A stretch of DNA of 64,000 nucleotides from an uncultured Nitrososphaerota archaeon (GCA_963838925.1 CAWISW010000002.1:1-64000), one strand, 5' to 3'. Shown: positions 1-13,731, counted from the stretch's first letter. Made by a program: numbers and translations. The notes: generated from the sequence alone by a model not told the origin.

Positions 1-21
1 GGCCCGACGGGATTCGAACCC
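1..21 (-). other. tRNA 3'-end fragment (T-loop plus 3' acceptor strand), possible att remnant; cut by window edge
   Basis: Reverse complement reads GGGTTCGAATCCCGTCGGGCC. No matching 5' tRNA half (GGGCCCG..., D-arm) is visible in the next ~100 nt. Confidence 0.55.
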
Positions 22-197
22 CGGGGGGTTCGATACCGAGATTCTGAGATTCTGGATTAGCATCGGGTTCCATTGTATCGCCAGTTATGCTGCCTCGCCA
101 TAAAAGCACCACCCTCGGGGACCTGAGTAGCAGCCCAACCTGTGCAGATGTGGGAGACGAATTGGATCGCCCTAAGAGGCGCCGAGGCAACCATGAT

Positions 198-455
198 TGC
201 GACATACATTACCTCACACCCGAGCTCCGCATCATCCCCTTCTGCTCGTTCAACGTCGTCCGAGAGTGGCATCGCGACAAGATTCAGCAAAAGTACGGCC
301 TCCCCATCGAGGCGTGGGAGGCGAAGAACGGCAAGAAGCTCGAGCACGGGCTCTACAGGGGGACCCTGAGGCGCGGCGGACACCACGCGGGCTGCGGGCG
401 CGTCGTGGGCGAGCAGGTCGAGGAAGTCCACATCCAGCCGATCACCGGAACCTGA
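198..455 (+). repeat. Repeat R1: orphan 3' end of radical-SAM tetraether synthase-like gene
   Basis: Encodes [55 protein letters not shown]...EEVHIQPITGT*. No radical-SAM core upstream; homologous to six downstream copies. Confidence 0.85.
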
Positions 456-1008
456 TATCCGCAGAACGTTCCTGCCGAAGGCCTTGCATTACCGACTCCG
501 ATTGGTTGAAACGCGTAGCGACGGCTAGCCGGAGTTGGCCCAGGTGATTGTTCTAAATGATAATCCCTTGAATGTCGACAAATTGTTTTGCAGTATTTGC
601 AATTCGCCAACGAATCTTGCGCAGAATTTATTGAGTTCTTCTCCGCCCATCTGATATTCTACCAATGTCAATGTTGACCACGCGCTGAGAACACTGAATC
701 GTCAACTTGGGCAGTCGCTTGTCTGGTGCTAGGTCTGGTTTCAAAATGGATGAAAGTGGGCGTGCATCAAGAGGCCTTACTGTCGGCTTTAGCACATGTC
801 AAGCTCGGGAAGAGGAACTGCAAAAACTTAGAAAGCATGTACCCGCTCGGACCTCGGCATGGAGGTTCTTCTCGATTCACGCTTGCATCTGGGATTGAAG
901 AGAGCCAGAGACTTACGGTTGGGTGGTTTCGAATTCGTTGTGAATCGAATACGTTAGAATAAGTATAAACATATGGGTAATTATTCGTGAATATGGTAAT
1001 CACCGTTC

Positions 1009-1305
1009 ATGAGACGGACCCGCCGCGCAAAGCGGTCGAAGATGGAAATCTGGGCGTCGATTCTGGATTGTCTTATATCCGAAGAGGCCAGCATGAACCG
1101 GGTCAAGATTTCGGCGAATGTAAACCAAAGAACTGCGAAAGAGAACCTAGACGAGCTGATTTCTAGAAGGTTGGTTCAGACGAGCCAATCGAAGTTCGTA
1201 TACTACTCGATCACCGAGGATGGAATCAAGTGGGTCAAGATCTATAGAAGTTTGATGAAGAACGAGTCGAGGAAAGCAAACGAGCTTCAAGTGGACTTCC
1301 AATGA
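1009..1305 (+). CDS. archaeal winged-helix transcription regulator (HTH_45-like)
   Basis: KRSKMEIWASIL...ANVN...LDELISRRLV...YSITEDG pattern; AT-rich TATA-like region upstream (~960-985). Confidence 0.8.
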   Translation: MRRTRRAKRSKMEIWASILDCLISEEASMNRVKISANVNQRTAKENLDELISRRLVQTSQSKFVYYSITEDGIKWVKIYRSLMKNESRKANELQVDFQ

Positions 1306-1703
1306 CCTGCACTCCGCCGCTCCTGTTTCGTTCAGAATGTCGTGGATCATATTGAACGGAATAGCGAGAATCATTGACCGCGATTACCTTCGATATTCCC
1401 AACGAAGCAAACGAAAGGCTGGACGCGCGTTCCGACTGTAGGCAGCTTCGTAGTCAGTCCTCGGCGGCGAACCACAATCTTGTTTTTCGCCACCTCAACC
1501 ACATTCATTCCAGGCGATACATGGTGTCGGTCGGGAATGGGTGCGGGACGGGTGATACTTCGGCTCCTGTCGTCAAGATTTGAGGGTTAGCAGCCGGAAG
1601 CTCGACGACTGATGCGGCTCCTTCGACGCGATAGAGGTGATTTCCTGCATCGAATTCAAGGAAGGTGCCGAGAGATGCTCTTGATACACGAATTCATGCT
1701 CTC

Positions 1704-2117
1704 TTACGGAGTATCGCTGAAGCTCTTGACCGTCTCATAGACGGAAATTGAGAGCGCGACCATATAGACCGAAAGAGAGAATAGGAAAGTTGAATTGATG
1801 TTAATTGGCCTCAGAATCGTGATTAGGACTAGTAGCGCTGCGCCGAAGAAAGCCGTAGCAGTGGTCCATAATGGAATCACAGTTCTCCTAATCCTTAACA
1901 TCGATTCGAAGAAGATCCTATCGACAGCGAAACCGTCGCCTTCCTGTCGAATCAAACCCATGCGGACGAGCTTCTGCACATGGTAATCGCTAACAGATGG
2001 GGAGCTAAGTCCGAGGCCACTTTGAATGTCCCTCAACCGAACGGGACCATTGCGATAGATGAACCGATAGACGCGACGCGTGGTTCCGTTGAGAACATCG
2101 CGTGAGGAATTCGTCAT
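1704..2117 (-). CDS. membrane-anchored winged-helix regulator
   Basis: N-terminal wHTH (GTTRRVYRFIY...RDIQSGLGLSSPSVSDYHVQKL) followed by two hydrophobic helices. Confidence 0.8.
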   Translation of the reverse strand: MTNSSRDVLNGTTRRVYRFIYRNGPVRLRDIQSGLGLSSPSVSDYHVQKLVRMGLIRQEGDGFAVDRIFFESMLRIRRTVIPLWTTATAFFGAALLVLITILRPININSTFLFSLSVYMVALSISVYETVKSFSDTP

Positions 2118-2355
2118 GTCATCATCTTTCGGTTTGGACCAGTCTAATCAAGGTATTGCGGAAGTTAGATAATGATTAAGAAAAATATTGTTACAGGGCG
2201 ACGTCCGCCGTGTACAAGTGTTTCCAGCCTTGATGCCGTCATTCAATTCTGCGCCGCTAATCTCTGCGCAGACTTCACCGTAAGCTTAGGCCTCACAATA
2301 CGCCGCAAGTGACACAATTATGTGCCACCTGCGGCAGAGTTGAGACTGTCAGTAC

Positions 2356-3561
2356 CTATGTGCCGGCGCTACTGGCCCATGATTCCTGGAACTGACCGCC
2401 GTTGCCTGAGGTCATTCCGCCGACGTCTGTGTTTTGGGTGCCCGAGATGTCTATGACCACTCCGACGCCATGTCCATTGCTCCAATCGGAGTAGGCGCTC
2501 ATGGAGTATACCGCATACAGAGAACATTCTGTGTAGTTGAAAGCTGTGAATTCCGGCAACCCATAGGTGGCTGGGGTGATGATTTCCGAGACGTATGCTG
2601 CGTAGACAGGAGTGAAGGCGATGCTCTCGGGATTGCCAGAGGTGGGTGTGCAAGTCCAGGTTTGGCTGTAGTCAGTGACATACAGGTAGTAGTTATTGCT
2701 CTCCGTACCGTCGTAAATGAGCTCGTTCTCCATGTCTGAGACCATGGTGTTGCCAGCATATGCAGTGTTACCGCATTCTTGGATTGAATTCACTCCGAAT
2801 AGTTCGGTCCAAGCCGTGTACGAGGCTCCACCACCATTCGAGTAGTCGGCCCACACGCCACCTTGAACTATGCAACACTTGTCGGAAGATGAAGTACTGT
2901 TTGTTAGTCCAACCCATGGACTAATGTTGCAGAATGTTGGGCTGGTTTGACAGATGCCTCCTGAAGGAGTTGAAAGAGTCGGCAGTGTATAGTCAGCCTC
3001 TGCCTGGAAGAGTCTCTGAGGCTGCCCGCTGAGGCCAGGGTGATCTATTGCGTATCCAGACCAATCGCAGGGCGAACTTGGACAGCTAGGAGAAATGCCT
3101 GCGTATGCCAAGTTATCGAGGCGCACTTGGGATATCGTAGAGGTAAGTGGATTTTCCACGACTACGAGGTTATACTGCGAACCATTTGTGCTTGTGGCTA
3201 GGAAGTTGACGGCAACGTTTTGGAACGTAACACTGCATTGGGAGTTGAATGTCCAATCGTCGTTTGCTCCTGTGTATTTAGTTACGAAGGCCGCAGAAGT
3301 AGTCTTGAACTCGGCGGAGGTAGCTGCGAGGTCGATGGCACTGTTCAGATTGTAGGGATCTCCTGCGGCTCGTATGTTCTGTTCGATGGCGTGCTCGTTT
3401 GTGCACGATGAACTGGCACTAGAGGAGTCTGCGTGGACCGCCGGTATGGCGGCCGACATGCCTAGAAGGGCGAGCATGAGGACCGACCCAAAAAAAGGTC
3501 CAACTCGCACCGACGCAAGTACAGATTTCGAGGTCAATTTCGTTCTCAGTTTCGATATCAC
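2356..3561 (-). CDS. secreted G1 (eqolisin-like) glutamic peptidase family protein
   Basis: Signal peptide ending AVHA; WSGY, PWVGL, IVQGG (catalytic Gln position), YTAWTELF, YVSE (catalytic Glu position). Confidence 0.65.
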   Translation of the reverse strand: MISKLRTKLTSKSVLASVRVGPFFGSVLMLALLGMSAAIPAVHADSSSASSSCTNEHAIEQNIRAAGDPYNLNSAIDLAATSAEFKTTSAAFVTKYTGANDDWTFNSQCSVTFQNVAVNFLATSTNGSQYNLVVVENPLTSTISQVRLDNLAYAGISPSCPSSPCDWSGYAIDHPGLSGQPQRLFQAEADYTLPTLSTPSGGICQTSPTFCNISPWVGLTNSTSSSDKCCIVQGGVWADYSNGGGASYTAWTELFGVNSIQECGNTAYAGNTMVSDMENELIYDGTESNNYYLYVTDYSQTWTCTPTSGNPESIAFTPVYAAYVSEIITPATYGLPEFTAFNYTECSLYAVYSMSAYSDWSNGHGVGVVIDISGTQNTDVGGMTSGNGGQFQESWASSAGT

Positions 3562-3829
3562 TCGTCTTCAGTGCGTTGTCTAGCTTAATATCACCAGCAG
3601 AATCTTTCATCCCGGTTCTGTTATCCGGGATATCAATTCCCATCTGCTTGCCTAAGCCTGCATGTGCTACCAACCCCGGCTCGCTCTCCCAATAGGTTAT
3701 CGTTTTCCCCGTATGGCTCCTTTGTCCAGCTTAGGAGAACGAACGATAGCGGGCAAGAACTGCAGGAACTTTGAATTAGTCGCCTCAACAAGTTACCTTG
3801 TTCCTAGCGTGGCTATCACTAGTCGATCG

Positions 3830-4426
3830 CTACGCGCATTGACCACTATTGAATGGCGACAAGAAGTTCCATGTCTCGCTGGATATTAGCCAGTCGTCGC
3901 CAGAGCGCACGTAGATGACCTGAAAAGCGACCTTCCCACCATACTCGTTGAACTGGCACTGAGTGAGCGAAGAATTGAGATTCCCGGCGATATTGAAGGT
4001 GCCGTTCAACTGAACAGCATTGCCAACTGGGCTCGCCGAGTCAATCGTGTTGTTGACAAAAAGATCAGTGAACAGCGGAAAAAAACCATCGTACAAAGTC
4101 GAAATGTTTGTTCCTCCTGCATAATGCCCTCCGAAGCCACTGGTCGCCCCTTTCCAAGTCACTGTCGCGTTCGCTAGATATTCAGCTACTAGCGATGAGT
4201 CGTTTCGCGATGCAAAATTCTGCAAATGGCTGAGGTATTCGGCTTCTATTGTCTCCGATGAGGGAATCGTGATAGTACTTGAAGCAGTTGGGGGTGCGTT
4301 TGATGATGGAGTTGTAGTGGCCATAGGGTTTGCGGGAACATAGTAGTTCAATTCAAAGCCCAGCCCGACTGCGACCGCCACAGCGAGTAGAGCTCCTATC
4401 ACGATTCGCCCTTTGTATTCAGACAT
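3830..4426 (-). CDS. membrane-anchored NTF2/SnoaL-like fold protein
   Basis: N-terminal TM helix, Thr/Ser linker, then 'LVAEYLANATVTW...G...W LISSETWNF', typical of NTF2-like folds. Confidence 0.65.
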   Translation of the reverse strand: MSEYKGRIVIGALLAVAVAVGLGFELNYYVPANPMATTTPSSNAPPTASSTITIPSSETIEAEYLSHLQNFASRNDSSLVAEYLANATVTWKGATSGFGGHYAGGTNISTLYDGFFPLFTDLFVNNTIDSASPVGNAVQLNGTFNIAGNLNSSLTQCQFNEYGGKVAFQVIYVRSGDDWLISSETWNFLSPFNSGQCA

Positions 4427-4620
4427 TTGTATCGCCTAAGCTGTATTAACTCTTTCATTTAGTTCTACGGCTTTGAAGACAGTTTCTACGAATTGTTCCG
4501 TAAACTTCAAAAGGTGATTTACAAAATTTGTAAAACACTGGGTAGAATCATTCCGTTTAGGGTTAATCAAAAAAATCGCCTAGGTCTGAACCTCTGGTTG
4601 TGGGCAAAATGCTCGCACGG

Positions 4621-4884
4621 AAGCGCTGCGACATTCACTACCTCACGCCCGACCTCCGCATCATCCCCTTCTGCTCGTTCAACGTCATCCCCGAGTAGTA
4701 CAGGGACAAGATCCACCAGAAGTACGGCCTGCCCATCGAGGCATGGGAAGCGAAGAACGGCAAGAAGCTCGAGGACGGGCTCTACCGTGGCACCCTACGC
4801 AGGGGCGGACACCACGCAGGCTGCGGCTGCGCGGTCGGCGAGCAGGGCGGGGAAGTCCACATCCAGCCTATCACAGGGACGTAG
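4621..4884 (+). repeat. Repeat R2: orphan tetraether synthase-like 3' end (internal TAG at 4696-4698)
   Basis: [86 protein letters not shown]. Confidence 0.85.
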
Positions 4885-4963
4885 AGAAGCAGCCCGACTG
4901 TTAGCGAGCGTCTGGTGTGAGGAAATCTTCAATAGGATACTCTCATTCCTCGATACGCTTACC

Positions 4964-5476
4964 TTGTCAGCTGTCACGACGCCTTCAAGCCAAAGGTTTC
5001 TGCATCTTACGCGGCGCAAGACAATCGGCCTGACGCTAGCCGCCGTGGCGATAATTCTAATCTTCCTGGGCTTCACTTATCAGATTCCAGTCGATCACAT
5101 CAACGAGCGGACTTCGATGCCAGCAGGGCTGATGGCCAACCCCGTCTTCGCGGCCGTTGCCACCAACACAACGGGGAACATCGGGCTCACGTTGCAGAAC
5201 TTCAACTATTCCAGCCCTGATGGCACGACGAAGCTGTCCGCGACCTCGGCAGACGTCACGATCACTATGAGCCCGGTCAACCAGGGCAGCACGAACTTGA
5301 ACCTGACACTCAACTTGAGCGGGGTCAACATCAAGTCCCCGTCTTTCACAGGCACCTTCTCGTCGCTGAAGTTGACCGGATTCGTGATAGTCGACCCCCA
5401 GACCAACCAGCTCGTCCTCTCCCTCGTGGCCTCAACCTCGGTCGCGGGCATCCTTCAAGCTGTCTTGGGAGTTTGA
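4964..5476 (+). CDS. hypothetical membrane-anchored beta-rich protein (cassette cargo)
   Basis: TTG start after R2; TM helix TIGLTLAAVAIILIFLGF, then Thr/Ser/Asn-rich beta-strand pattern. The 5' part of the track ORF is an out-of-frame reading of R2. Confidence 0.7.
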   Translation: MSAVTTPSSQRFLHLTRRKTIGLTLAAVAIILIFLGFTYQIPVDHINERTSMPAGLMANPVFAAVATNTTGNIGLTLQNFNYSSPDGTTKLSATSADVTITMSPVNQGSTNLNLTLNLSGVNIKSPSFTGTFSSLKLTGFVIVDPQTNQLVLSLVASTSVAGILQAVLGV

Positions 5477-5548
5477 TTCTGCAGGGGCATCCGTAACTGT
5501 CCCGGTCGAACCGCCGTTTTCAGGCCAGAAAGAATGTTAGAGGAAACG

Positions 5549-5587
5549 GGTGAGGATTTCCACATCCAGCCGATCACGAGAACCTAG
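5549..5587 (+). repeat. Repeat R3 (short, degenerate Tes 3' end)
   Basis: ggtgaggatttccacatccagccgatcacgagaacctag = GEDFHIQPITRT*. Confidence 0.8.
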
Positions 5588-5601
5588 ACGAATCTTAGGG
5601 C

Positions 5602-5846
5602 TCATTCAGAGGGAGCGCGGCGGATGTTCTTCAGCGCTTCTTCCACATCGTTTAGTGCTACGATTTCCTGGCCAAACAGCTCAGTGGTGCGGTCCCATGC
5701 GACCAGAGCACGGTTGATTATCACGGGCCGAAGTTCCTCCAGAATGACCCGCAGTCTGTTCGCATCGTTCAGCGTTTCGGCCAATTCTTGATTGCCTTAT
5801 CTGCGCGAGACTCGATGTACTCCCTCCATCTTACGGGGTCTTTCAT
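5602..5846 (-). pseudogene. small helical orphan ORF, possibly frameshifted
   Basis: ATG at 5846 (MKDPVRWREYIESRADKAIK) overlaps out of frame with the 60-aa ORF 5602-5784. Confidence 0.35.
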
Positions 5847-5990
5847 TAGGCAATCTAGTTTCCTCATCACTTCCTCGTCCTCCGTCTGGCCTGCCTTCAA
5901 CGCAACAACATTGTTCCCGCTTCCTTAAAGACTCTGCTCTGGCCTGGAAGTATTTGTCGTAGAGCTCCGCGAAACTGATTTCATCGGCCG

Positions 5991-6044
5991 GCCGTCAGCG
6001 AGCAGGGCGAGGAAGTCCACATCCAACCGATTACAGGAACCTAG
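5991..6044 (+). repeat. Repeat R4
   Basis: gccgtcagcgagcagggcgaggaagtccacatccaaccgattacaggaacctag = AVSEQGEEVHIQPITGT*. Confidence 0.85.
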
Positions 6045-6143
6045 CTCCCTGAAGCTAGCCTCAATAGCCAGCAACGCCCTACCATTCGACGAGAGATGCC
6101 GCCAGTGGGCATCTAGGCTTATATCGCCGGGCCTGCTTATTGG

Positions 6144-6434
6144 TTGACTTGGATGGCTCGAGAAGTGAAGGCCATGGGAGTAGACCCAATCGAACGGGCT
6201 CTCAACGCACGTATCTTCAAGAAACTAGGCGTATCGCCGCAGTCCAGGTGGGCGAAGGACTACACCGAGATGATGCGGCGGCCGCTGACGGCGGAAGAGT
6301 GGCGGAACTTCGAGGAGAATGTTCTGAACGACCCGAAGAAGCTGGACGAATGGGTTGACCGGGTGATTGCTGGATGGACCGGGAGAACGTCGACAGGCTC
6401 AAGAAAGCGCTTGACGGCGTCCAAGAGTCGCTGA
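6144..6434 (+). CDS. hypothetical protein (cassette cargo)
   Basis: 96-aa ORF with protein-like composition; TATA-like 'cttatat' ~25 nt upstream. Confidence 0.5.
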   Translation: MTWMAREVKAMGVDPIERALNARIFKKLGVSPQSRWAKDYTEMMRRPLTAEEWRNFEENVLNDPKKLDEWVDRVIAGWTGRTSTGSRKRLTASKSR

Positions 6435-6563
6435 CTCGAAGGATTCCTGTGGTCGCGGTCAGAAGTCCAGAGAACCTCGCGGAAGAGGTGGCTGCGCTAA
6501 ATGCTCTTCTCGAGTTGAAGATGAAACTGAGTCTCCTTTCGTGAACCCATCCTCCTTACCACA

Positions 6564-6630
6564 GGCATCGGATGCGCTGTGGGCGAGCAGGGCGAGGAAG
6601 TTCCACATCCAGCCGATCACCGGAACCTAG
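6564..6630 (+). repeat. Repeat R5 (1-nt insertion)
   Basis: ggcatcggatgcgctgtgggcgagcagggcgaggaagttccacatccagccgatcaccggaacctag. Confidence 0.85.
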
Positions 6631-6634
6631 GGGA

Positions 6635-6988
6635 TCAGCGAGCCTGTCGATCCGGCGCGAGGTCGAGGGCTTCTTTCTGGGCTCCCAAAGCCACATCGTC
6701 CTCGCCTGCGCCCTTCACATGGGCACAGCCTCTGCGTCCCGATTGTCCGAGGAACTTTGACCGATAACCGGACATCCTCGCCATCAGCAGATTGAGTTCT
6801 GTGGTTTCCTGCCCTGCTGCGTCCATGTCCTGCCTTAAGCAATCGAGGATGTCCAGCAGTATCACGACTCTCTTCACCTGAGAGTCTTGCAGCACATACT
6901 CGTCAATCAGTCCTCTTATCGCCGCCGATGAGGGCCACTGAGCGGTCGCTCTGATAATCCCGTCAGCCACTTCTTTGGTGTTCACCAA
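6635..6988 (-). CDS. hypothetical helical protein (cassette cargo)
   Basis: 117-aa ORF with amphipathic helices; ends 4 nt from R5. Confidence 0.45.
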   Translation of the reverse strand: MVNTKEVADGIIRATAQWPSSAAIRGLIDEYVLQDSQVKRVVILLDILDCLRQDMDAAGQETTELNLLMARMSGYRSKFLGQSGRRGCAHVKGAGEDDVALGAQKEALDLAPDRQAR

Positions 6989-7144
6989 ATGCCTTCACGG
7001 CTGCCTGCGATTGCCTCCGATTGCAGAGTTGGTGGCACCTGTCTTACTTAAGGGGAGGACATGATTCTCTCGATTGGGAATGAGGTTTTCACGAGTGAGA
7101 ATCGTCCACTCGTCTTATAGGCCGGCGCGCAGTTCCGTGTTGCC

Positions 7145-7252
7145 ATGGGCAAGCGTCCAATCCTTCCAGACGTTTTCGAGGACTGGATTGAGAAGCAGAA
7201 GGTCAAGCCAGTGAAGGCGAAGCCTGGTTTCGTAGCCGAAGAGAAGATCTAG
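7145..7252 (+). CDS. putative 35-aa small protein
   Basis: MGKRPILPDVFEDWIEKQKVKPVKAKPGFVAEEKI*; 'cttata' box ~30 nt upstream; below the ORF-track cutoff. Confidence 0.35.
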   Translation: MGKRPILPDVFEDWIEKQKVKPVKAKPGFVAEEKI

Positions 7253-7307
7253 CCAGGCTCAAGGCTTGCAAGTAACCGCCAGGACCCTCCGGTAGACCCG
7301 TCGCTGC

Positions 7308-7952
7308 TCATCTCTTCCACGCCTTCATCTCGCTCTTCGCCAGACGGTGAGACTCCAGCATCAACTTGAGACAGGTGGGGCTGTGCTCTCGCATCAGAGC
7401 CTCGAGATCCTCGACACTGACGGAGTAGCCCGGGCTCCAGTACTCCTTGGTGCCATCCCCCGCCTCGAACCCTACGACCTCTCCATCAAGGATTATCCTG
7501 CGAATCGGGCCATCGCCGCCCTCGACAGTTCCCACAAGCATCGACTTCGCGATCCCGACGCTCGGGATTCCCAGAACCATTCCGCATATGGTCGCAAGAC
7601 CCGCGGAGCGCGGATGCGCAGCCCCATGCGCGTCGAAACATACGATTTGAGGACGAACCGTGAGCCTGTTCACCGCCTCCGTCGCGAAGGGGCCCTCGTG
7701 CAAGTAGAACAACCCTGGCGAGTAGGGGAAGTTGAAGTGGCCGGTGTAGACGCTGTGCTCAACGATCCGTCCGTCCACGGCTTCGGTTGCCACCGCAGCC
7801 ACCCTGTCGGAGGAGTATGACGCATCGACAGCGCATATCCTCGAGACCCGCTTTGGTACGGCCTTCGCCCTTGCGCGAAGGAGCGTTTGCAATCTGGCGA
7901 AGAACGCAGCTTCTGCTCCATCGACATCTTCATGACTTCGCAAGTTTTCCAC
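7308..7952 (-). CDS. nfi: endonuclease V
   Basis: VDASYS, PYSPGLFYLHE wedge, FDAHGAAHPR, GIAKS motifs. Confidence 0.9.
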   Translation of the reverse strand: MENLRSHEDVDGAEAAFFARLQTLLRARAKAVPKRVSRICAVDASYSSDRVAAVATEAVDGRIVEHSVYTGHFNFPYSPGLFYLHEGPFATEAVNRLTVRPQIVCFDAHGAAHPRSAGLATICGMVLGIPSVGIAKSMLVGTVEGGDGPIRRIILDGEVVGFEAGDGTKEYWSPGYSVSVEDLEALMREHSPTCLKLMLESHRLAKSEMKAWKR

Positions 7953-7989
7953 GCACAGGACTTCTCAGTCCTTAATTGGCATATGCCCA

Positions 7990-8075
7990 AGGCGGTCGAC
8001 ACCACGTGGGTTGTGGGTGCGCGGTCGGCCAGCAGGGCGGGGAGGTCCACCAACAGCCGACTACCGGAGCTCTAG
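7990..8075 (+). repeat. Repeat R6 (degenerate)
   Basis: ...caccacgtgggttgtgggtgcgcggtcggccagcagggcggggaggtccaccaacagccgactaccggagctctag = HHVGCGCAVGQQGGEVHQQPTTG. Confidence 0.8.
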
Positions 8076-8218
8076 AGTCAAGCCGGTGGCCGAAGGTCCT
8101 AGCTCGCCCGCCTCTCTCCTGCCTCTCGTTGCCGTCGTCCCAGCGGAACGTGTGACCAACGCGAACGCGGCCGTGCGATGTTGACAGTGTAAATAGCGCC
8201 TCCTTGGAGCACGGCGTC

Positions 8219-8914
8219 ATGAACCGATTCATCGCTGTGTGGGGGGCCATCGTGACAGTTGGGGGAGTCGTCATGTGGCTGCTCTTGCAAGGTCTCTACT
8301 CAGTGAACTTTTTCATGATGGGGTTCTACATCCCTCCTGCGCAGACCGTTGCGGAGGGAACCACGTTCGCCGGGATTCTTCTGCTCCTGGCGAGTCTCGT
8401 ATCCGAGTGGCCGAGGTATGCCGAGGTGAGCAATGAGACCGCTGCAAGATACTTCGGTTGGGCAGCGCTGGTCAACGCGCTGGCTGCCGCCGTCTTCACC
8501 GTCCCAATGCTCGTGCCTTCTCTCGAGTTTCCGATACTGATCGCTGAATGGCCTGGGATCTATCTCGTCATAGCGTACGCCTTCTTCATCATCTTCGGAG
8601 TGATCGGGATGCTCGGCTGGAGCGTGATGTACTCCTTCATGCCTACGTTCTTCTCAAAGGAATGGGTCGACCGGCGCTCGGTCATCCTTCAGCTACTGCT
8701 GTCTGAGGTCGGGATCTACGTCGCGTCCACCTTCCTCTTCATCGCCGGATTCAGAGGTGCTTCGCTCGTCCACGACGGCAACGCTGGCTATGCCGTCGTA
8801 GGAGCAACGATGGAGATTGCCGACCTGCCCTCGGCCGTGGCGATATTCGTGATAATCGTTAGCGTCTTCCTGGGGGCCTTGAACATATTGCGACGGAGCG
8901 GTCCTGAGCACTAG
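8219..8914 (+). CDS. polytopic membrane protein (~6 TM), cassette cargo
   Basis: Long hydrophobic ORF; 'taaata' box ~25 nt upstream of ATG 8219. Confidence 0.8.
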   Translation: MNRFIAVWGAIVTVGGVVMWLLLQGLYSVNFFMMGFYIPPAQTVAEGTTFAGILLLLASLVSEWPRYAEVSNETAARYFGWAALVNALAAAVFTVPMLVPSLEFPILIAEWPGIYLVIAYAFFIIFGVIGMLGWSVMYSFMPTFFSKEWVDRRSVILQLLLSEVGIYVASTFLFIAGFRGASLVHDGNAGYAVVGATMEIADLPSAVAIFVIIVSVFLGALNILRRSGPEH

Positions 8915-8931
8915 ACGTCCGAGCGCATGCG

Positions 8932-8979
8932 AGCGAGCAGGGCGGGGAAGTCCACATCCAGCCCATCACCGGAATCTGG
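8932..8979 (+). repeat. Repeat R7 (stop codon decayed to TGG)
   Basis: agcgagcagggcggggaagtccacatccagcccatcaccggaatctgg = SEQGGEVHIQPITGI. Confidence 0.85.
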
Positions 8980-9129
8980 TTTGGAACAAGAGGCGGGGAC
9001 CTGGGTTCTTCGGCCCGTTCCCTCCGTCATCTTTGACTCCCCTGGGGGAAGCCACAAGCGGGCATGATGGAAGCTTGCTCTCTCGTTTCCGGTCGAGTTT
9101 CAAGAGCCCAGCATGAGGCTGCTGGTCGC

Positions 9130-9624
9130 CTAACCGTTGCCCTTGGCCTGGATCAGCCTCTTCTCGAAGCAGACGCTCATCTCGCTTTCGGCGTGCTTCC
9201 CGTAGTTCTTGATGCGGTGGTAGCCCAGCTTCTCATACAGGGCGATTGCCTCCGGCTGACGGACCCCGGTCTCCAACCGGGCGACCTCGTATCCGCGCTC
9301 TCGCGCGATACGCTCCAGTTCCCCCATAACGACCTTGGAGTAGCCTCTCCCTCGAAACTCAGTCTCAACGAAGATCCTCTTCAGCTCCGCGACGCCTTCA
9401 TCCAGACGGCGGATCGCGCCGCAGGCCACAGGGCGCCCGCCGCTCCGCCCGATCACGAACGCTCCCTTCGGGCCGAGCACGTCCTCCGGCGCAAAGTCTC
9501 CCGACCCGTCCTCCATGTAGTCGTACCTGCGCGCCAGCTCGGCGGAGAGTTCGCGGATGAGCTTGGCTGCCTCCGCGCTTCGGGGGTCGGCCGCCTCCAC
9601 CGTGAACGCGTCCCCGGTCATCAT
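9130..9624 (-). CDS. GNAT family N-acetyltransferase
   Basis: AELKRIFV..FRGRGYS..LETGVRQPEAIALYEKLGY. Confidence 0.9.
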   Translation of the reverse strand: MMTGDAFTVEAADPRSAEAAKLIRELSAELARRYDYMEDGSGDFAPEDVLGPKGAFVIGRSGGRPVACGAIRRLDEGVAELKRIFVETEFRGRGYSKVVMGELERIARERGYEVARLETGVRQPEAIALYEKLGYHRIKNYGKHAESEMSVCFEKRLIQAKGNG

Positions 9625-9867
9625 GACTTCGTACGGGAGTGTGGCTTTAACGGTTGGGTCGGCTCGAGGACCCAGTCGGACTCCATCGCCCCTTACGCGT
9701 TGCTCCAATCCCGTTATAGGGAGGAGCAGGACGCTGGGTGCTGAGACCGATGCTGTGCTACTGTGGAAGGCATCTCTCGCGGGGCGAGGAAGGTCTGCTG
9801 GTCTGCGCCACCTGCAAGCTTCCTCCTCCAAGGTGCAGGTGCCTCCCGTTGGGTGTGGGCTGAGGGG

Positions 9868-10338
9868 CTACATGACGACCCGGTAGTCGTCTTCTATCCT
9901 GACGATGTCGGCTTCGTCGAAGTGGCCCTTCGAGACCTCCAGGATGTCGGCGCTCTCTTCGTCACACCCGAGGCGATGAACCATCATCTGAGGGACGACG
10001 ACGTGCGAGTCCTTTTCGAGCGGAACCTTTTCGAGAAGCTGGCCACGCTTTAGAATCGCGTAGGCTCGTCCCTTGAGGCAGTACCACTCCTCGGTGCGGT
10101 GGCGGTGGTATTGCAGACTCAGACGCGACCTCGCATAGACGTGAATGATCTTCACGGTCAGCGGTTCGCCGGGATTGTGCTGAAGGAGCTCTCCCGTCGG
10201 GTGGTAGATCGGTTCGAGCTCGGAGAGAAAGCCTGCTAGCCAGGAGGGGGACGGAGCTTCGTCCTCAAGGAAGAGTGAGAAGAAGCCCCAAGGGCGTCGC
10301 TCAACCCTGATGGGCGTGGAGAGAATCGAGGATTTCAA
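9868..10338 (-). CDS. mannose-6-phosphate isomerase-like cupin
   Basis: RPWG, RLSLQYHRHRTEEW, HRL, DIVRIEDDY motifs. Confidence 0.85.
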   Translation of the reverse strand: MKSSILSTPIRVERRPWGFFSLFLEDEAPSPSWLAGFLSELEPIYHPTGELLQHNPGEPLTVKIIHVYARSRLSLQYHRHRTEEWYCLKGRAYAILKRGQLLEKVPLEKDSHVVVPQMMVHRLGCDEESADILEVSKGHFDEADIVRIEDDYRVVM

Positions 10339-10402
10339 AACTGAGTGGGATCCTCTGCTGCGACCTACGGGGGATTGGAGCTTAAAACCGTTTGAGGAAG
10401 CC

Positions 10403-11446
10403 CTAGCCTTCTGAGACGAGCTCCGTAATTGCTTCCATGAGGACTCCTTTCGCCACATCCACCTTGTAGGCGTTGTTCTGGAGAGGGGTCGCGGCAGAAA
10501 GGGCTGGAGCTGCCGCCTGTCCGGGCGCCAGCGTCGAGAGATCGCTGCCGTTCAGCACCGCCTCGACCCCGGCATCCCTGTACGGTGCTGGGGCGACCCC
10601 TCCGAACACCACCCTGGAGTCTCTTACGGTGCCTCCGTCAAGGGTGACGGTCACCGCCACGCTGGCTATGGCGAAATCTAGCGCGTTCCTTATCCTTGAC
10701 TTTACGAAGACCGATCGGAAGGCTTGCGGCGACGGAGGGACTTTGACAGCCGTCACGAGCTCCGACGGAGAGAGGATGTGAGACTGGAGGACGTCTCCCA
10801 TCCACACGTTCCCCGGGATGAACTCGCTCACGCTCACCGTCTTCGTCCCGTATTGCCCTGCTATCACGACTGAAGCGCCCAGCGCCTCGAGCGCCACCGC
10901 GAGGTCGGAGGGATGCGCGGCGTAGCAGTCGTTCCCTCCCATCACGCTGTGGTAGTACCTGTTGTCCGCCCCTTCCTGTATGGCGTAGCAGGTGCTGCCA
11001 CCAGCCCTCCACGTCTTGAAGCCGTTGCGCAGAAACCAGCACCAGACCTGTTGGGTCAGCGCACCTCCGACCGTCGCCACGTTTCGCACCTGGGGCGCCG
11101 ATATTAGGCCCGCAGCCTGTGCCAGCAATGGGTAGTTCTCGGCGATGACAGCGGAGCTCTCCACCTCGCTCAGGGTGGTCAGCGCCCCCATCGACAAGCC
11201 CTTCGTCCCGTCGAAGTCGAGGAAGCGGATCTCCCCCACCCCCTTGATGTCGACGATCACCTCGGGGTATTCCACCATCGCGTCTCGCTTCATGAGGTGA
11301 AGCAGGTCCGAGCCTCCAGCGATCACCTTCGCCTTTCCCCCGTACTTTCCCAACACCGCCACCGCGTCTGCGACGGTGAGGGGAGTCACGTAGCTGAACC
11401 CGGGTAGCGACCTGGGGTTGAGACCAGGGAGGAGCCCGCTCGACGT
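10403..11446 (-). CDS. xanthine dehydrogenase-family FAD-binding subunit (PaoB-like); start uncertain
   Basis: IAGGSDLL, QVRNVATVGG, AHPSDLAVAL, NAYK motifs. Confidence 0.88.
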   Translation of the reverse strand, partial: TSSGLLPGLNPRSLPGFSYVTPLTVADAVAVLGKYGGKAKVIAGGSDLLHLMKRDAMVEYPEVIVDIKGVGEIRFLDFDGTKGLSMGALTTLSEVESSAVIAENYPLLAQAAGLISAPQVRNVATVGGALTQQVWCWFLRNGFKTWRAGGSTCYAIQEGADNRYYHSVMGGNDCYAAHPSDLAVALEALGASVVIAGQYGTKTVSVSEFIPGNVWMGDVLQSHILSPSELVTAVKVPPSPQAFRSVFVKSRIRNALDFAIASVAVTVTLDGGTVRDSRVVFGGVAPAPYRDAGVEAVLNGSDLSTLAPGQAAAPALSAATPLQNNAYKVDVAKGVLMEAITELVSEG

Positions 11447-11448
11447 TC

Positions 11449-13731
11449 CTAAGCGCCTCCTGAGCTCTTCAGCGCCTCGATGACCATCTGAGGTGTGATC
11501 GGGAGGGACGCGAACCTCACCCCTATCGCGTTGGCGACAGCGTTCCTGATCGCAGAGTGGGTGCAGATGATCATGCTCTCCCCGCCGCCCTTCGCTCCGA
11601 AGGGCCCCCGGGGGTCGGGGTTCTCGATCACGATCGGGACCATCTGGGGCACGTCCATGCTCGTCGGGACGTGGTAGTAGAGCCAGTCCCGGGTCACCGA
11701 CTGGAGCGTCGTCACGTCCACGACGTAGTCTTCGAGCAGGCCGTAGCCGACGCCCTGGAGGGCGGCCCCCTGCATCTGGCCTTCCACTCCCAGCGGATTT
11801 ATCGCCTTCCCGTAGTCTTGGACCATCACCAGGTTCGTTGGGGTGACCTTGCCCGTCCACGCGTCTACCTCCACCTCAGCGAAGCAGACGCCGAACTGGA
11901 AGCCCGACTTGCTTACCGCGGACGTGTGCACGTAGACTCCAGTGCCGTCGACGCTGCTTCCCTCTGGCAGGTGCTGGAGCACCTCGGCGAAGCTCGCGCT
12001 CCGGCCCGAGTTCGTCACCGTCACCCTGCTCCCCTCCGTGTCGAGCGCGTCAGGGCTCGCACCCAAGACCTGCGACGCGACGTTCAGCAGGGCCTGCTTC
12101 GCGTTGGCAGCGGCCGCCTTCGCGGCGTTCCCGGCAATGAACGTGGTCCTGCTCCCGAATGTGCCTTCGAGGGGCGCGGGCGGGTACTGGGTATCGCCCA
12201 TGAGGATCTCTACGTCCCCCAGGTTCGCGCCCAACTCCTCCGCGACGAGCATGCACATCGTGGTGGATTGCCCACCGCCGAGGTCGGACGTGCCCATCGT
12301 GATCCAGACGGTGCCGTCCTTCCTGATCGAGACGGACGCGTTGGCCTGGTCCGGGATGTGCCCGAAGCCGTAGGTGAGGAGGGCCATGCCGATGCCGTAG
12401 TGCGTGTGGGTGTCCGCGCTCAGGCCGCTGAAGGGGGCCCATTTCGTGCCCCAGCCGCTGGCGTCCATTCCCTTCCCAATGGCCTCGATGAAGGCCGACC
12501 CCCCGACCTGGGAGAAGTCGACGGCGTTTCCCTCGATCTCCAGCACGTCGTCGGGACGTATGCAGTTCTGGAGGTGCACCTGGGTCGGGTCCATCCCGAG
12601 CTTCAAGGCGAGGTCGTCGATTGCCGCCTGGACAGCGAAGTTGGTCTGCACGCCCCCGTAGCCTCTGAAAGCGCCAGACGGGGGGTTGTCGGTGAACACG
12701 GCAATCGTCGTGTAGCGCATGTTCGGGACCCTGTACCCGTTGAATATCGCCCGGGCGCCGACGTACGGGACGGAGTCCCCTCCCGCCACATAGGCCCCCT
12801 TGTCGAAGACCGCGTAGAGGTCGATCGCTGTGATCTCGCCCGTGCTCTTGGCCCCTATCGTAACCGTCAACTGGGCGGGGTGGCGCTTGTTTGGCGAAGA
12901 CTCGAACGCATAGTCCTGCGGCATGATCATCTTCACGGGCCGCCCGGTCTTCTTCGCAAGGATTGCCGCCATCGGGATGAACCTGTAGACGTTGTCTTCC
13001 CCGAAGCCGCCTCCGAGGTTCTGAGATACGACCCTCACGTTGCTGACGGGCACCTGAAGGAGCTGCGCTAGCTCCGCCTGTCTGGTGAAGATCACTTGGC
13101 TGTCGTTGTAGACGGTCAGCCTGTCCCCCTCCCACTCGGCGACGCAACAGAACGGCCTGAGAGACGCGGCGGCTTGGGAGGGCACTTTGTACTGGCCCGT
13201 GAAGACCACGTCCGCCTGCGCCATGCCCGCGTCAACGTCGCCCCTCGAGAGCACGAGTGGCGAGTATGGATTCATCACGTTGCCCGCGTAGAACGGCGAC
13301 TCGACGTCCGGGGCGCCAGGCTGGGTCGTAGCCGAGGCGTCGCCCGTTGCAGGGAGAGGTTGGTACTTCACGTTCACGAGGTTGACCGCCGCGTCGGCTA
13401 TCTGCTCGGTCTCGGCCGCGATGGCCGCGACCTCGTCGCCGACGAACCTGACGTAGGGGTCGACGGCTCCGGCCAGGACCCTCTGATCGTACACGGGAGG
13501 GAAGGGTATCTCAGGGACGTCTTTGCCCGTGATTACCGCCGCGACCCCTGGGAGGCGCTCGGCCTCAGACGTGTCGACGCTGAGAATGCTCGCCCTTGGG
13601 TACGGGCTTCGGACCACTCGCCCCACGAGCATGCCCGGCACGTCCAGGTCGATCGTGTAGCTAGCGGTCCCGGTCACCTTCTGCCTGGCACGGAAGTCGG
13701 GCACCTTGGTCCCTATGGTGGAGAACGACAC
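11449..13731 (-). CDS. xanthine dehydrogenase-family molybdopterin-binding subunit
   Basis: KVTGTASY, LGGGFG, AFRGYG, QMQGAALQGVG, GAKGGGE motifs. Confidence 0.93.
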   Translation of the reverse strand: MSFSTIGTKVPDFRARQKVTGTASYTIDLDVPGMLVGRVVRSPYPRASILSVDTSEAERLPGVAAVITGKDVPEIPFPPVYDQRVLAGAVDPYVRFVGDEVAAIAAETEQIADAAVNLVNVKYQPLPATGDASATTQPGAPDVESPFYAGNVMNPYSPLVLSRGDVDAGMAQADVVFTGQYKVPSQAAASLRPFCCVAEWEGDRLTVYNDSQVIFTRQAELAQLLQVPVSNVRVVSQNLGGGFGEDNVYRFIPMAAILAKKTGRPVKMIMPQDYAFESSPNKRHPAQLTVTIGAKSTGEITAIDLYAVFDKGAYVAGGDSVPYVGARAIFNGYRVPNMRYTTIAVFTDNPPSGAFRGYGGVQTNFAVQAAIDDLALKLGMDPTQVHLQNCIRPDDVLEIEGNAVDFSQVGGSAFIEAIGKGMDASGWGTKWAPFSGLSADTHTHYGIGMALLTYGFGHIPDQANASVSIRKDGTVWITMGTSDLGGGQSTTMCMLVAEELGANLGDVEILMGDTQYPPAPLEGTFGSRTTFIAGNAAKAAAANAKQALLNVASQVLGASPDALDTEGSRVTVTNSGRSASFAEVLQHLPEGSSVDGTGVYVHTSAVSKSGFQFGVCFAEVEVDAWTGKVTPTNLVMVQDYGKAINPLGVEGQMQGAALQGVGYGLLEDYVVDVTTLQSVTRDWLYYHVPTSMDVPQMVPIVIENPDPRGPFGAKGGGESMIICTHSAIRNAVANAIGVRFASLPITPQMVIEALKSSGGA

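Follow-up and report, generated by a model that had tools for sequence, protein, structure and literature searches.

Repeated tails of the tetraether synthase gene tes border putative mobile cassettes in uncultured Nitrososphaerota archaea

Integrons, including sedentary chromosomal integrons and clusters of attC sites lacking integrases (CALINs), some of them archaeal (PMC9668308, in part), are close counterparts of the locus described here, which lies in an uncultured Nitrososphaerota archaeon (GCA_963838925.1 CAWISW010000002.1:1-64000; this whole stretch of 64,000 nucleotides is called the window) and contains seven copies of the 3' end of tes, the tetraether lipid synthase gene, separated by unrelated cargo. 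Both form long arrays, running one way, of cassettes of ~0.3-1 kb that mostly hold a single gene and are each closed by a repeat, with the newest cassette at the docking site, an order that is shuffled among relatives, contigs that often carry no integrase, and cargo rich in toxin-antitoxin pairs, acetyltransferases, glyoxalases, and proteins of unknown function. Unlike in integrons, the repeat of the tes array is the sequence-conserved coding 3' end of a housekeeping gene and not a structured attC site, no IntI lies beside the tes docking site, and the docking gene stays functional. In addition, the genes of the tes arrays face both ways (among 60 small cassettes, 34 have their best open reading frame (ORF) on the + strand and 26 on the - strand), and thus the arrays have no common promoter. 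The original prediction for the window had spoken of a locus resembling an integron; the layout agrees with that description, whereas IntI, attC hairpins, and a uniform orientation were each looked for and not found.

The pdif modules on Acinetobacter plasmids, which are moved by host Xer recombinases, are likewise small, include toxin-antitoxin modules, occur in either orientation, are bounded by short repeats, and carry no recombinase of their own. In contrast to pdif sites, the core of the tes tail does not have the 11-6-11 inverted-repeat dif structure, and no Xer-like conserved recombinase was found in these genomes. Tandem integrative and cis-mobilizable elements resemble the tes arrays in the direct repeats of the target-gene end, the intact target, the re-use of the site, and the presence of integrase-less units bounded by att-like sequences; the streptococcal ICESt1 and ICESt3 at fda are reportedly an example of tandem accretion at the 3' end of a protein gene. 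In contrast to such elements, the 33 array loci yielded no integrase-bearing member at tes, and the tes units are far smaller and more numerous (as many as 11 tails per contig, and 13 on two overlapping contigs). Among thaumarchaeal integrated elements, 14 of 68 are located in the 3' ends of protein genes and the median att length is 17 bp, compared with repeats of 40-310 nt at tes, and tes is not named among the integration targets in the main text of that study (PMC6563490). The C-terminal displacement of Rhs and contact-dependent inhibition (CDI) proteins and the effector-immunity arrays of the type VI secretion system (T6SS) share with the tes arrays the orphaned 3' pieces with cargo behind one expressed gene, as well as the use of a conserved gene as homology anchor with no dedicated recombinase (PMC5361080, in part). 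In the Rhs and T6SS arrays, the 3' pieces are toxin tips that vary and are paired with cognate immunity genes, whereas all tes tails encode the same peptide and the cargo is unrelated to tes; the junction pattern at tes also fits a mobile unit of cargo plus tail better than displacement. No description of a tes-tail array was found in the literature on tes in combination with integration or integrase, nor in the consulted part of a description of Gagatemarchaeaceae genomes (PMC10640624). We tentatively suggest that the arrays are an undescribed cassette platform, in which the 3' end of a housekeeping gene may serve as both the docking site and the cassette-borne recombination site, with no IntI or attC and with several anchors in the genus.

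The window comprises the initial 64 kb of contig C2 in the source assembly, G000 (hereafter, G### denotes genomes, L### loci or metagenome contigs, and C# contigs), which consists of three contigs with a total length of 1.84 Mb, is 87% complete, and represents a Gagatemarchaeaceae-like member of Nitrososphaerota. A direct-repeat search yielded a seven-copy family at 409-454, 4838-4883, 5541-5586, 5998-6043, 6584-6629, 8028-8073, and 8933-8978, whose copies differ by 9-33%, as well as a 254-nt pair (198-451 and 4627-4880) with 85% identity. A blastn search of the whole assembly with window positions 151-460 recovered the same seven sites on C2 (E 1e-160 to 2e-5) and four on C3. Using nhmmer with a 363-nt profile built from tes 3' ends, whose positions are used for tail ends throughout, the tails were located at 197-453, 4622-4883, 5547-5587, 5991-6044, 6561-6630, 7994-8068, and 8932-8977, all on the + strand, in agreement to within a few bases with the seven direct repeats originally predicted at 198-8979. 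The tails correspond to the last 13-86 codons of tes; two are long, covering residues 473-557 of the 557-aa Tes, and five are short (41-82 nt). All copies had been predicted to end at the stop codon after ...VHIQPITGT, and five of the seven indeed have a stop codon where tes itself ends (TGA once and TAG four times), while the sixth copy is degenerate with no stop there and the seventh has TGG instead. Copy 2 also contains an internal TAG, and copy 5 a 1-nt insertion. The expected unrelated cargo in mixed orientations was likewise present, with six blocks of 0.4-4.2 kb between the tails and genes on both strands.

The original prediction had recognized the repeat as the C-terminus of Tes. This assignment was borne out by the full 557-aa protein of the relative G007, which scored 691.9 bits against NF045702 ('tetraether lipid synthase Tes'; cut-off 450), and matched PDB 7tol (GDGT/MAS synthase; E 1.4e-128). 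In the partial tails, codon positions 1 and 2 of the last 18 nt were conserved at 0.87-1.0 and position 3 at 0.37-0.76, and the tails bear the tes signature of the resident lineage (GAGAAC vs GAGCAG, an amino-acid signature). This third-position variation and the lineage signature indicate that the tails descend from working tes ends and are not an independent non-coding repeat family. The body of tes was not found in G000: tblastn with the full Tes of a relative returned only the tails and a weak MoaA-like match, the NF045702 model matched the tails only, with nothing above the cut-off, and the genes upstream of tes in two relatives were not found in the assembly. Because the body and its usual upstream neighbours are both absent, tes falls in an assembly gap of G000, and because the window begins the contig in an assembly with no tes body, the intact gene cannot be found to the left of the array. 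On the metagenome contig L035, the order is tes, one cassette, a short tail, and then the GNAT gene of the window, where L035 positions 805-1200 correspond to window positions 9152-9547 (GNAT flank) at 90.9% identity. In L017 (G009), L020 (G022), and L118 (G010), tes is broken across two or three reading frames, which may reflect sequencing error or real decay.

An intact tes followed by one to seven partial tails was present in 11 of the 12 same-genus genomes having the tes body locus; the exception was G008, with no extra tail in 16.7 kb. Partial tails beyond any contig-end explanation were also present in 14 of 79 metagenome loci, and many metagenome loci in which the tes tail is only ~78% identical to that of the window contained no partial tails. 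L097 carries 11 tails in 10 kb and L038 carries 10, and L038 overlaps L041 perfectly over 831 nt, so that the joined sequence has 13 tails in ~16 kb. Across 33 loci, 93 partial tails and 76 inter-tail cargos were counted, with a median cargo length of 715 nt (interquartile range 522-1083 nt, full range 285-9891 nt). In total, 99 of 101 partial tails were in + orientation once their loci had been oriented by tes or by tail match, and the remaining two belong to satellite loci in arbitrary orientation. The right end was at the stop codon (profile positions 361-363) in 79 of the 95 tails not cut by a contig start. The left ends formed two groups, 24 long tails (positions 56-109) and 56 short ones (262-323), where the alignment ends of short tails are fuzzy and no sharp classes of left ends are relied on. 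These extra tails in genomes and metagenomes uphold the claim that the locus has been used repeatedly, and relatives do not share a fixed gene order free of tail duplications: content and order vary, and the tails are repeated.

Individual cassettes recur in different genomes. Cassette 4 of the window, with a 96-aa ORF, is 91.7% identical to a copy in G020, 88.5% to a copy in L038, and 67% to the first cassette after tes in G018, and a cassette encoding a 281-aa protein is common to G012 and G014. Three cassettes are common to L047 and L097 but are arranged as A, B, C and B, A, C, respectively; with the recurrence across genomes, this reordering confirms that relatives differ in the content and order of their cassettes. 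In four shared cassettes, the left ends of the right-hand tails agree to within 3 nt (295/292, 80/82, 269/267, and 306/307), whereas the left-hand tails differ by 27-233 nt; in two further shared cassettes, the left ends of the right-hand tails agree within 12-15 nt. The homology between shared cassettes ends where the right-hand tail ends. These sequence comparisons, in which the right-tail boundary is kept, the left tails differ, and the homology stops at the end of the right tail, show that the heritable unit is the cargo together with its right-hand tail. Within the G018 bin, two strains are distinguished by a 1.4-kb cassette immediately after the tes stop codon, from which it follows that new units enter adjoining tes. 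One cassette has a long tail in one of these strains and a short tail in the other (positions 146 vs 302), and hence tails erode from the left. The difference of four cassettes between L047 and L097 maps to a crossover in an invariant 14-nt core, CCACATCCAGCCG, the only identical stretch between the two parental tails.

Tails also occur away from tes. Four more copies are located on C3 at 441-490 kb, in low-G+C islands, one of which (C3:436528-449471, L028) contains a 444-aa tyrosine integrase gene (436872-438206), an internal long tes tail (441344-441599), and a 33-nt direct repeat at 436826 and 449440. C3:470423-473940 (L029) and C3:485544-489518 (L030) are units of 3-4 kb that consist of a tail, an HTH_45 gene, secreted proteins, and a long tail, a build similar to that of cargo 1 of the window, and they lie far from any tes body. 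Three satellite tail copies (on G000:C3, G020:C68, and G018:C7) are 3-10 kb from a divergent tyrosine integrase. Furthermore, a genome-wide scan for gene-end repeats detected a KaiC-like gene (C2:605655-606431) whose last ~125 and ~85 nt are repeated downstream, with each tail copy ending at a stop codon and two VapBC-type toxin-antitoxin cassettes in between (C2:603676-606431; L202:5676-8431). The KaiC-like tail is found in two to three copies at ~1-kb spacing in G020 and G009 and as a single copy in other relatives. Since the layout of this array in G000 is the same, the process is not specific to tes. Another region, C2:609307-611710 (L202), was rejected as a tail array, as it comprises five tandem archaeal pilin-like paralogues with a shared N-terminal signal region, that is, an ordinary gene family. 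Other same-strand repeat clusters of 35-450 nt were noted at C3:173609-203990, C3:355203-373754, C3:644646-654426, and C1:399475-405462.

No recombinase or transposase family was matched with Pfam in 267 ORFs (14 + 32 + 118 + 60 + 43), including 43 upstream of tes in four loci. Scans of five genomes with PF00589 and PF16795 gave no match near the arrays; in the same five genomes, the resolvase scan gave only G007:C1:685876, far from tes, and the Cas1 scan only a borderline match on G018:C2, with none in G000 in either case. The 444-aa integrase on C3 had been missed by longest-ORF calling and is below the Pfam cut-off (E 0.009). Six-frame tblastn with both integrases of G000 against 118 loci (1.06 Mb) gave no match in the arrays downstream of tes, the matches being confined to four loci away from tes, and no integrase was found within 6 kb of tes in 79 further tes loci across Nitrososphaerota. 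The earlier observation that the window contains no integrase therefore held in genome scans with PF00589, PF16795, PF00239, and PF01867 and in tblastn with the two G000 integrases. The divergent tyrosine-integrase family had 1-13 matches per genome in 20 of the 22 relatives searched, and no subfamily was common to the array-bearing G000, G007, G012, and G014.

As a candidate tes integrase, the C3 protein was rejected, since no tail is located near its closest relatives in G003, G010, G017, and G004. The element that carries it appears to possess ends of its own, given the 33-nt repeat and the start of element homology ~350 nt upstream of the integrase gene. The other G000 integrase, adjacent to glnA, was also rejected, with no duplicated glnA tail and close orthologues in only five relatives. 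The glutamine synthetase at G000:C3:14931-16401 (L110:5931-7401) is apparently split into two overlapping ORFs, and a 431-aa tyrosine integrase begins 29 nt past its end. Folding of the attC type was not found in eight folds (four tails, both strands), with z-scores of -0.81 to +1.23 relative to shuffles and no Rfam match. A scan of IMG/VR with the tail for a free or viral form gave 14 pattern matches, none of which was confirmed.

The layout and the mobile unit of cargo plus tail, taken alone, are well supported, and we hold them to be very probable. We read the window as the distal part of a cassette array docked on the 3' end of tes and, with much more reserve, propose that host homologous recombination drives the array. 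A unit would consist of compact cargo, with one or a few genes, its own promoter, and either orientation, and a 5'-truncated tes tail at its right. On entry, recombination would take place between the tail of the unit and that of the functional tes, by one crossover if the unit is circular and by two if it is a linear tail-cargo-tail molecule; tes would remain intact, the newcomer would adjoin it, and older units would be shifted downstream. Later recombination between tails would delete, move, and exchange units between strains, with the tails acting as portable homology arms for the general homologous recombination of the host. We rank this explanation first because it needs no dedicated protein and covers both anchors, tes and the KaiC-like gene, although the preference over a recombinase acting in trans is slight and the enzyme is one that we infer. 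Several observations weigh against it. Many tails measure only 31-70 nt and share 80-90% identity with tes, yet their cassettes recur across arrays, and homologous recombination works poorly on tails this short and diverged; in 56 of 95 tails, nothing but the last 40-100 nt is kept, and in approximately five only an inner piece. The one-sided truncation suggests a requirement for the right end itself, including its invariant core, as would be the case for a site-specific core, and the sole mapped crossover is within the 14-nt core. The left ends of long tails cluster at positions 56-87, nine of them at 80-82 beside at least four unrelated cargos, which is not predicted by random circle closure. 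The first acquisition of a tail by new cargo is also left unexplained by homologous recombination, and, given the missed C3 integrase and the weak detection by Pfam, an unknown recombinase family could be hidden in the same way.

A site-specific recombinase, probably of the tyrosine type, that is encoded elsewhere and recognizes the conserved core near the tes stop codon would make the cassettes comparable to those of integrase-less integron clusters or to cis-mobilizable elements served in trans. The minimal tails of 31-45 nt, which continue to delimit cassettes and never lack the core or the stop codon, speak for such an enzyme, as do the one-sided truncation, the crossover within the core, the wide occurrence of the divergent integrase family in relatives, and its proximity to three satellite tails; published archaeal integrases use att sites of 40-243 bp, and one acts in a homology-like manner on segments of at least 104 bp (PMC8371274, in part). 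However, integrases are absent from and next to the tes-adjacent arrays and from the region upstream of tes, the four array-bearing genomes have no subfamily in common, and the relatives of the C3 integrase in four genomes are tail-less. Moreover, the core lacks palindromic symmetry, the variation at its synonymous sites is that expected from codon bias, and the KaiC-tail array would demand a second specificity. We regard this explanation as somewhat less likely than host recombination. A stack of once-complete integrative elements, that is, viruses or plasmids with their own integrase, could also have accumulated at the tes 3' end and decayed to remnants, in line with the thaumarchaeal elements that target protein-gene 3' ends (14 of 68) and re-use sites in tandem (PMC6563490, in part) and with large low-G+C inserts such as the 13-kb island of G007, the 10-kb island of G016, and the 4.2-kb cargo 1 of the window. 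We consider this improbable, as the median cargo is only 715 nt with intact compact ORFs instead of gene debris, the six-frame search of 1.06 Mb of loci revealed no remnant of an integrase, the same small cassettes are found again in other arrays together with their own tail, and the published median att of 17 bp contrasts with the 40-310 nt found here.

One-sided truncation and intact right ends could arise at any anchor gene with no enzyme involved if incoming DNA anchored by homology in tes, joined illegitimately in the resident tail, and left a 5'-truncated old tail behind, a model described for Rhs and T6SS effector-immunity arrays (PMC5361080, in part). Such sequential displacement predicts event-specific junctions and homology running past the shared tail into the next cargo; the latter was not seen, four cassettes keep their right-tail boundary beside different right-hand neighbours, and unrelated cargos share tail boundaries, so that we give it little chance. 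Finally, the window begins a contig, the tes body and its upstream neighbourhood are missing, and tails also occur at C3:441-490 kb, as might be expected from an assembly artefact or a chimeric bin. The same layout is nevertheless present in 11 other genomes of the genus, including the one-contig chromosome G007, and on 14 metagenome contigs; because of its occurrence in so many independent assemblies, an artefact is ruled out for practical purposes, and the divergence of 9-33% between copies shows that they are not collapsed repeats.

Along the window, positions 1-197 at the contig start are non-tes sequence and presumably belong to the end of another cassette. By eye, the first 80 bases resemble a tRNA, and a tRNA-anchored island was considered and rejected: ARAGORN found no tRNA in 1-12000, and Rfam gave nothing at E <=0.1. 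Tail 1 (198-455, +), with the TGA stop, is followed by the 4.2-kb cargo 1 (456-4621; G+C 0.50-0.53), in which ORF calling and Pfam revealed an HTH_45 gene (1009-1305, +), a gene for a winged helix-turn-helix (wHTH) and membrane protein (1704-2117, -), and secreted proteins (2356-3561 and 3830-4426, both -), with paralogues beside other C3 tails. Four of the 12 HTH_45 (PF14947) genes in G000 lie within ~600 nt downstream of a tail copy and in the same orientation as the tail (window 1009-1305, C3:470835, C3:485702, and C2:602988). Tail 2 (4622-4884, +), also long and with a TAG stop, precedes cargo 2 (4885-5546), a membrane protein ORF (~4886-5476, +) with a 71%-identical paralogue at C3:655207-655809. 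The short tail 3 (5547-5587, +; 41 nt), cargo 3 (5588-5990) with a 60-aa ORF (5602-5784, -), and the short tail 4 (5991-6044, +; 54 nt) are followed by cargo 4 (6045-6560) with the 96-aa ORF (6144-6434, +) that occupies other array positions in G020, L038, and G018. The left end of tail 5 (6561-6630, +; 70 nt) corresponds to that of the L038 copy of cassette 4.

Cargo 5 (6631-7993) encodes a 117-aa ORF (6635-6988, -) and endonuclease V (7308-7952, -; PF04493, E 3.5e-29). This endonuclease V gene is the sole nfi copy in the assembly, and an nfi homologue is located a few kb upstream of tes in a distant Nitrososphaerales metagenome-assembled genome (L162). Beyond the degenerate tail 6 (7994-8075, +), cargo 6 (8076-8931) encodes a 236-aa membrane protein (8204-8914, +), and tail 7 (8932-8979, +), short and the last, is orthologous to the last tail in L035. 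Past this tail, the G+C content climbs and ordinary genes follow, namely those for a GNAT acetyltransferase (9130-9831), a cupin (9868-10458), and a CoxL/M-type dehydrogenase; the first two (9130-10458, -), identified with Pfam, form a right flank that is conserved according to the L035 match and cupin synteny.

Pfam annotation of 224 array ORFs identified toxin-antitoxin genes (HicA/HicB, MazE-PIN, Fic/DOC, ParE, and AbiEii), restriction and defence genes (GmrSD, DpnI, Dcm with Vsr, D12 methylase, and helicase/ATPase sets), and enzymes (glyoxalases, aldo-keto reductases, GNAT, and alpha/beta hydrolase), together with KaiC, PEBP, DoxX, an rpS10-like protein, wHTH regulators, secreted repeat proteins, and many proteins of unknown function. 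The best ORF covers a median of 56% of the cargo. A rule that the stop codon abuts the tail was rejected, as this was true (within 30 nt) for only 11 of the 34 + strand cassettes, with a median gap of 66 nt. The rpS10-like ORF (PF00338, E ~1e-23) occupies its own cassette, followed by a short tail, in L097 (9387-9698) and L047 (2882-3193). The newest G018 cassette, adjoining tes, codes for a protein of 395 aa that weakly matches LAGLIDADG_3 (L023:1910-3094, -), homologues of which are found in the tes-downstream islands of G015 and G016. In G007, a 13-kb low-GC3 defence island directly follows tes (L015:2101-15000) and contains genes for a HEPN-like 448-aa protein, GmrSD, D12 methylase, a DUF7226/helicase/AAA set, and a CHAT fragment.

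Integrons are the classic means by which single genes are stockpiled and shuffled, and they are defined by one enzyme and one folded site. The uncultured, abundant soil Thaumarchaeota considered here have long and variable stacks of toxin-antitoxin, defence, and detoxification genes with neither of these parts. If host recombination suffices, any conserved gene end could become a platform for gene capture, and searches based on integrases or attC would overlook an entire category of stored accessory genes; if a hidden recombinase acts, it would represent a new recombination system with a natural target of ~30-45 bp. Either way, tes and its tails provide a marker by which gene flow within Gagatemarchaeaceae-like populations can be followed in metagenomes.

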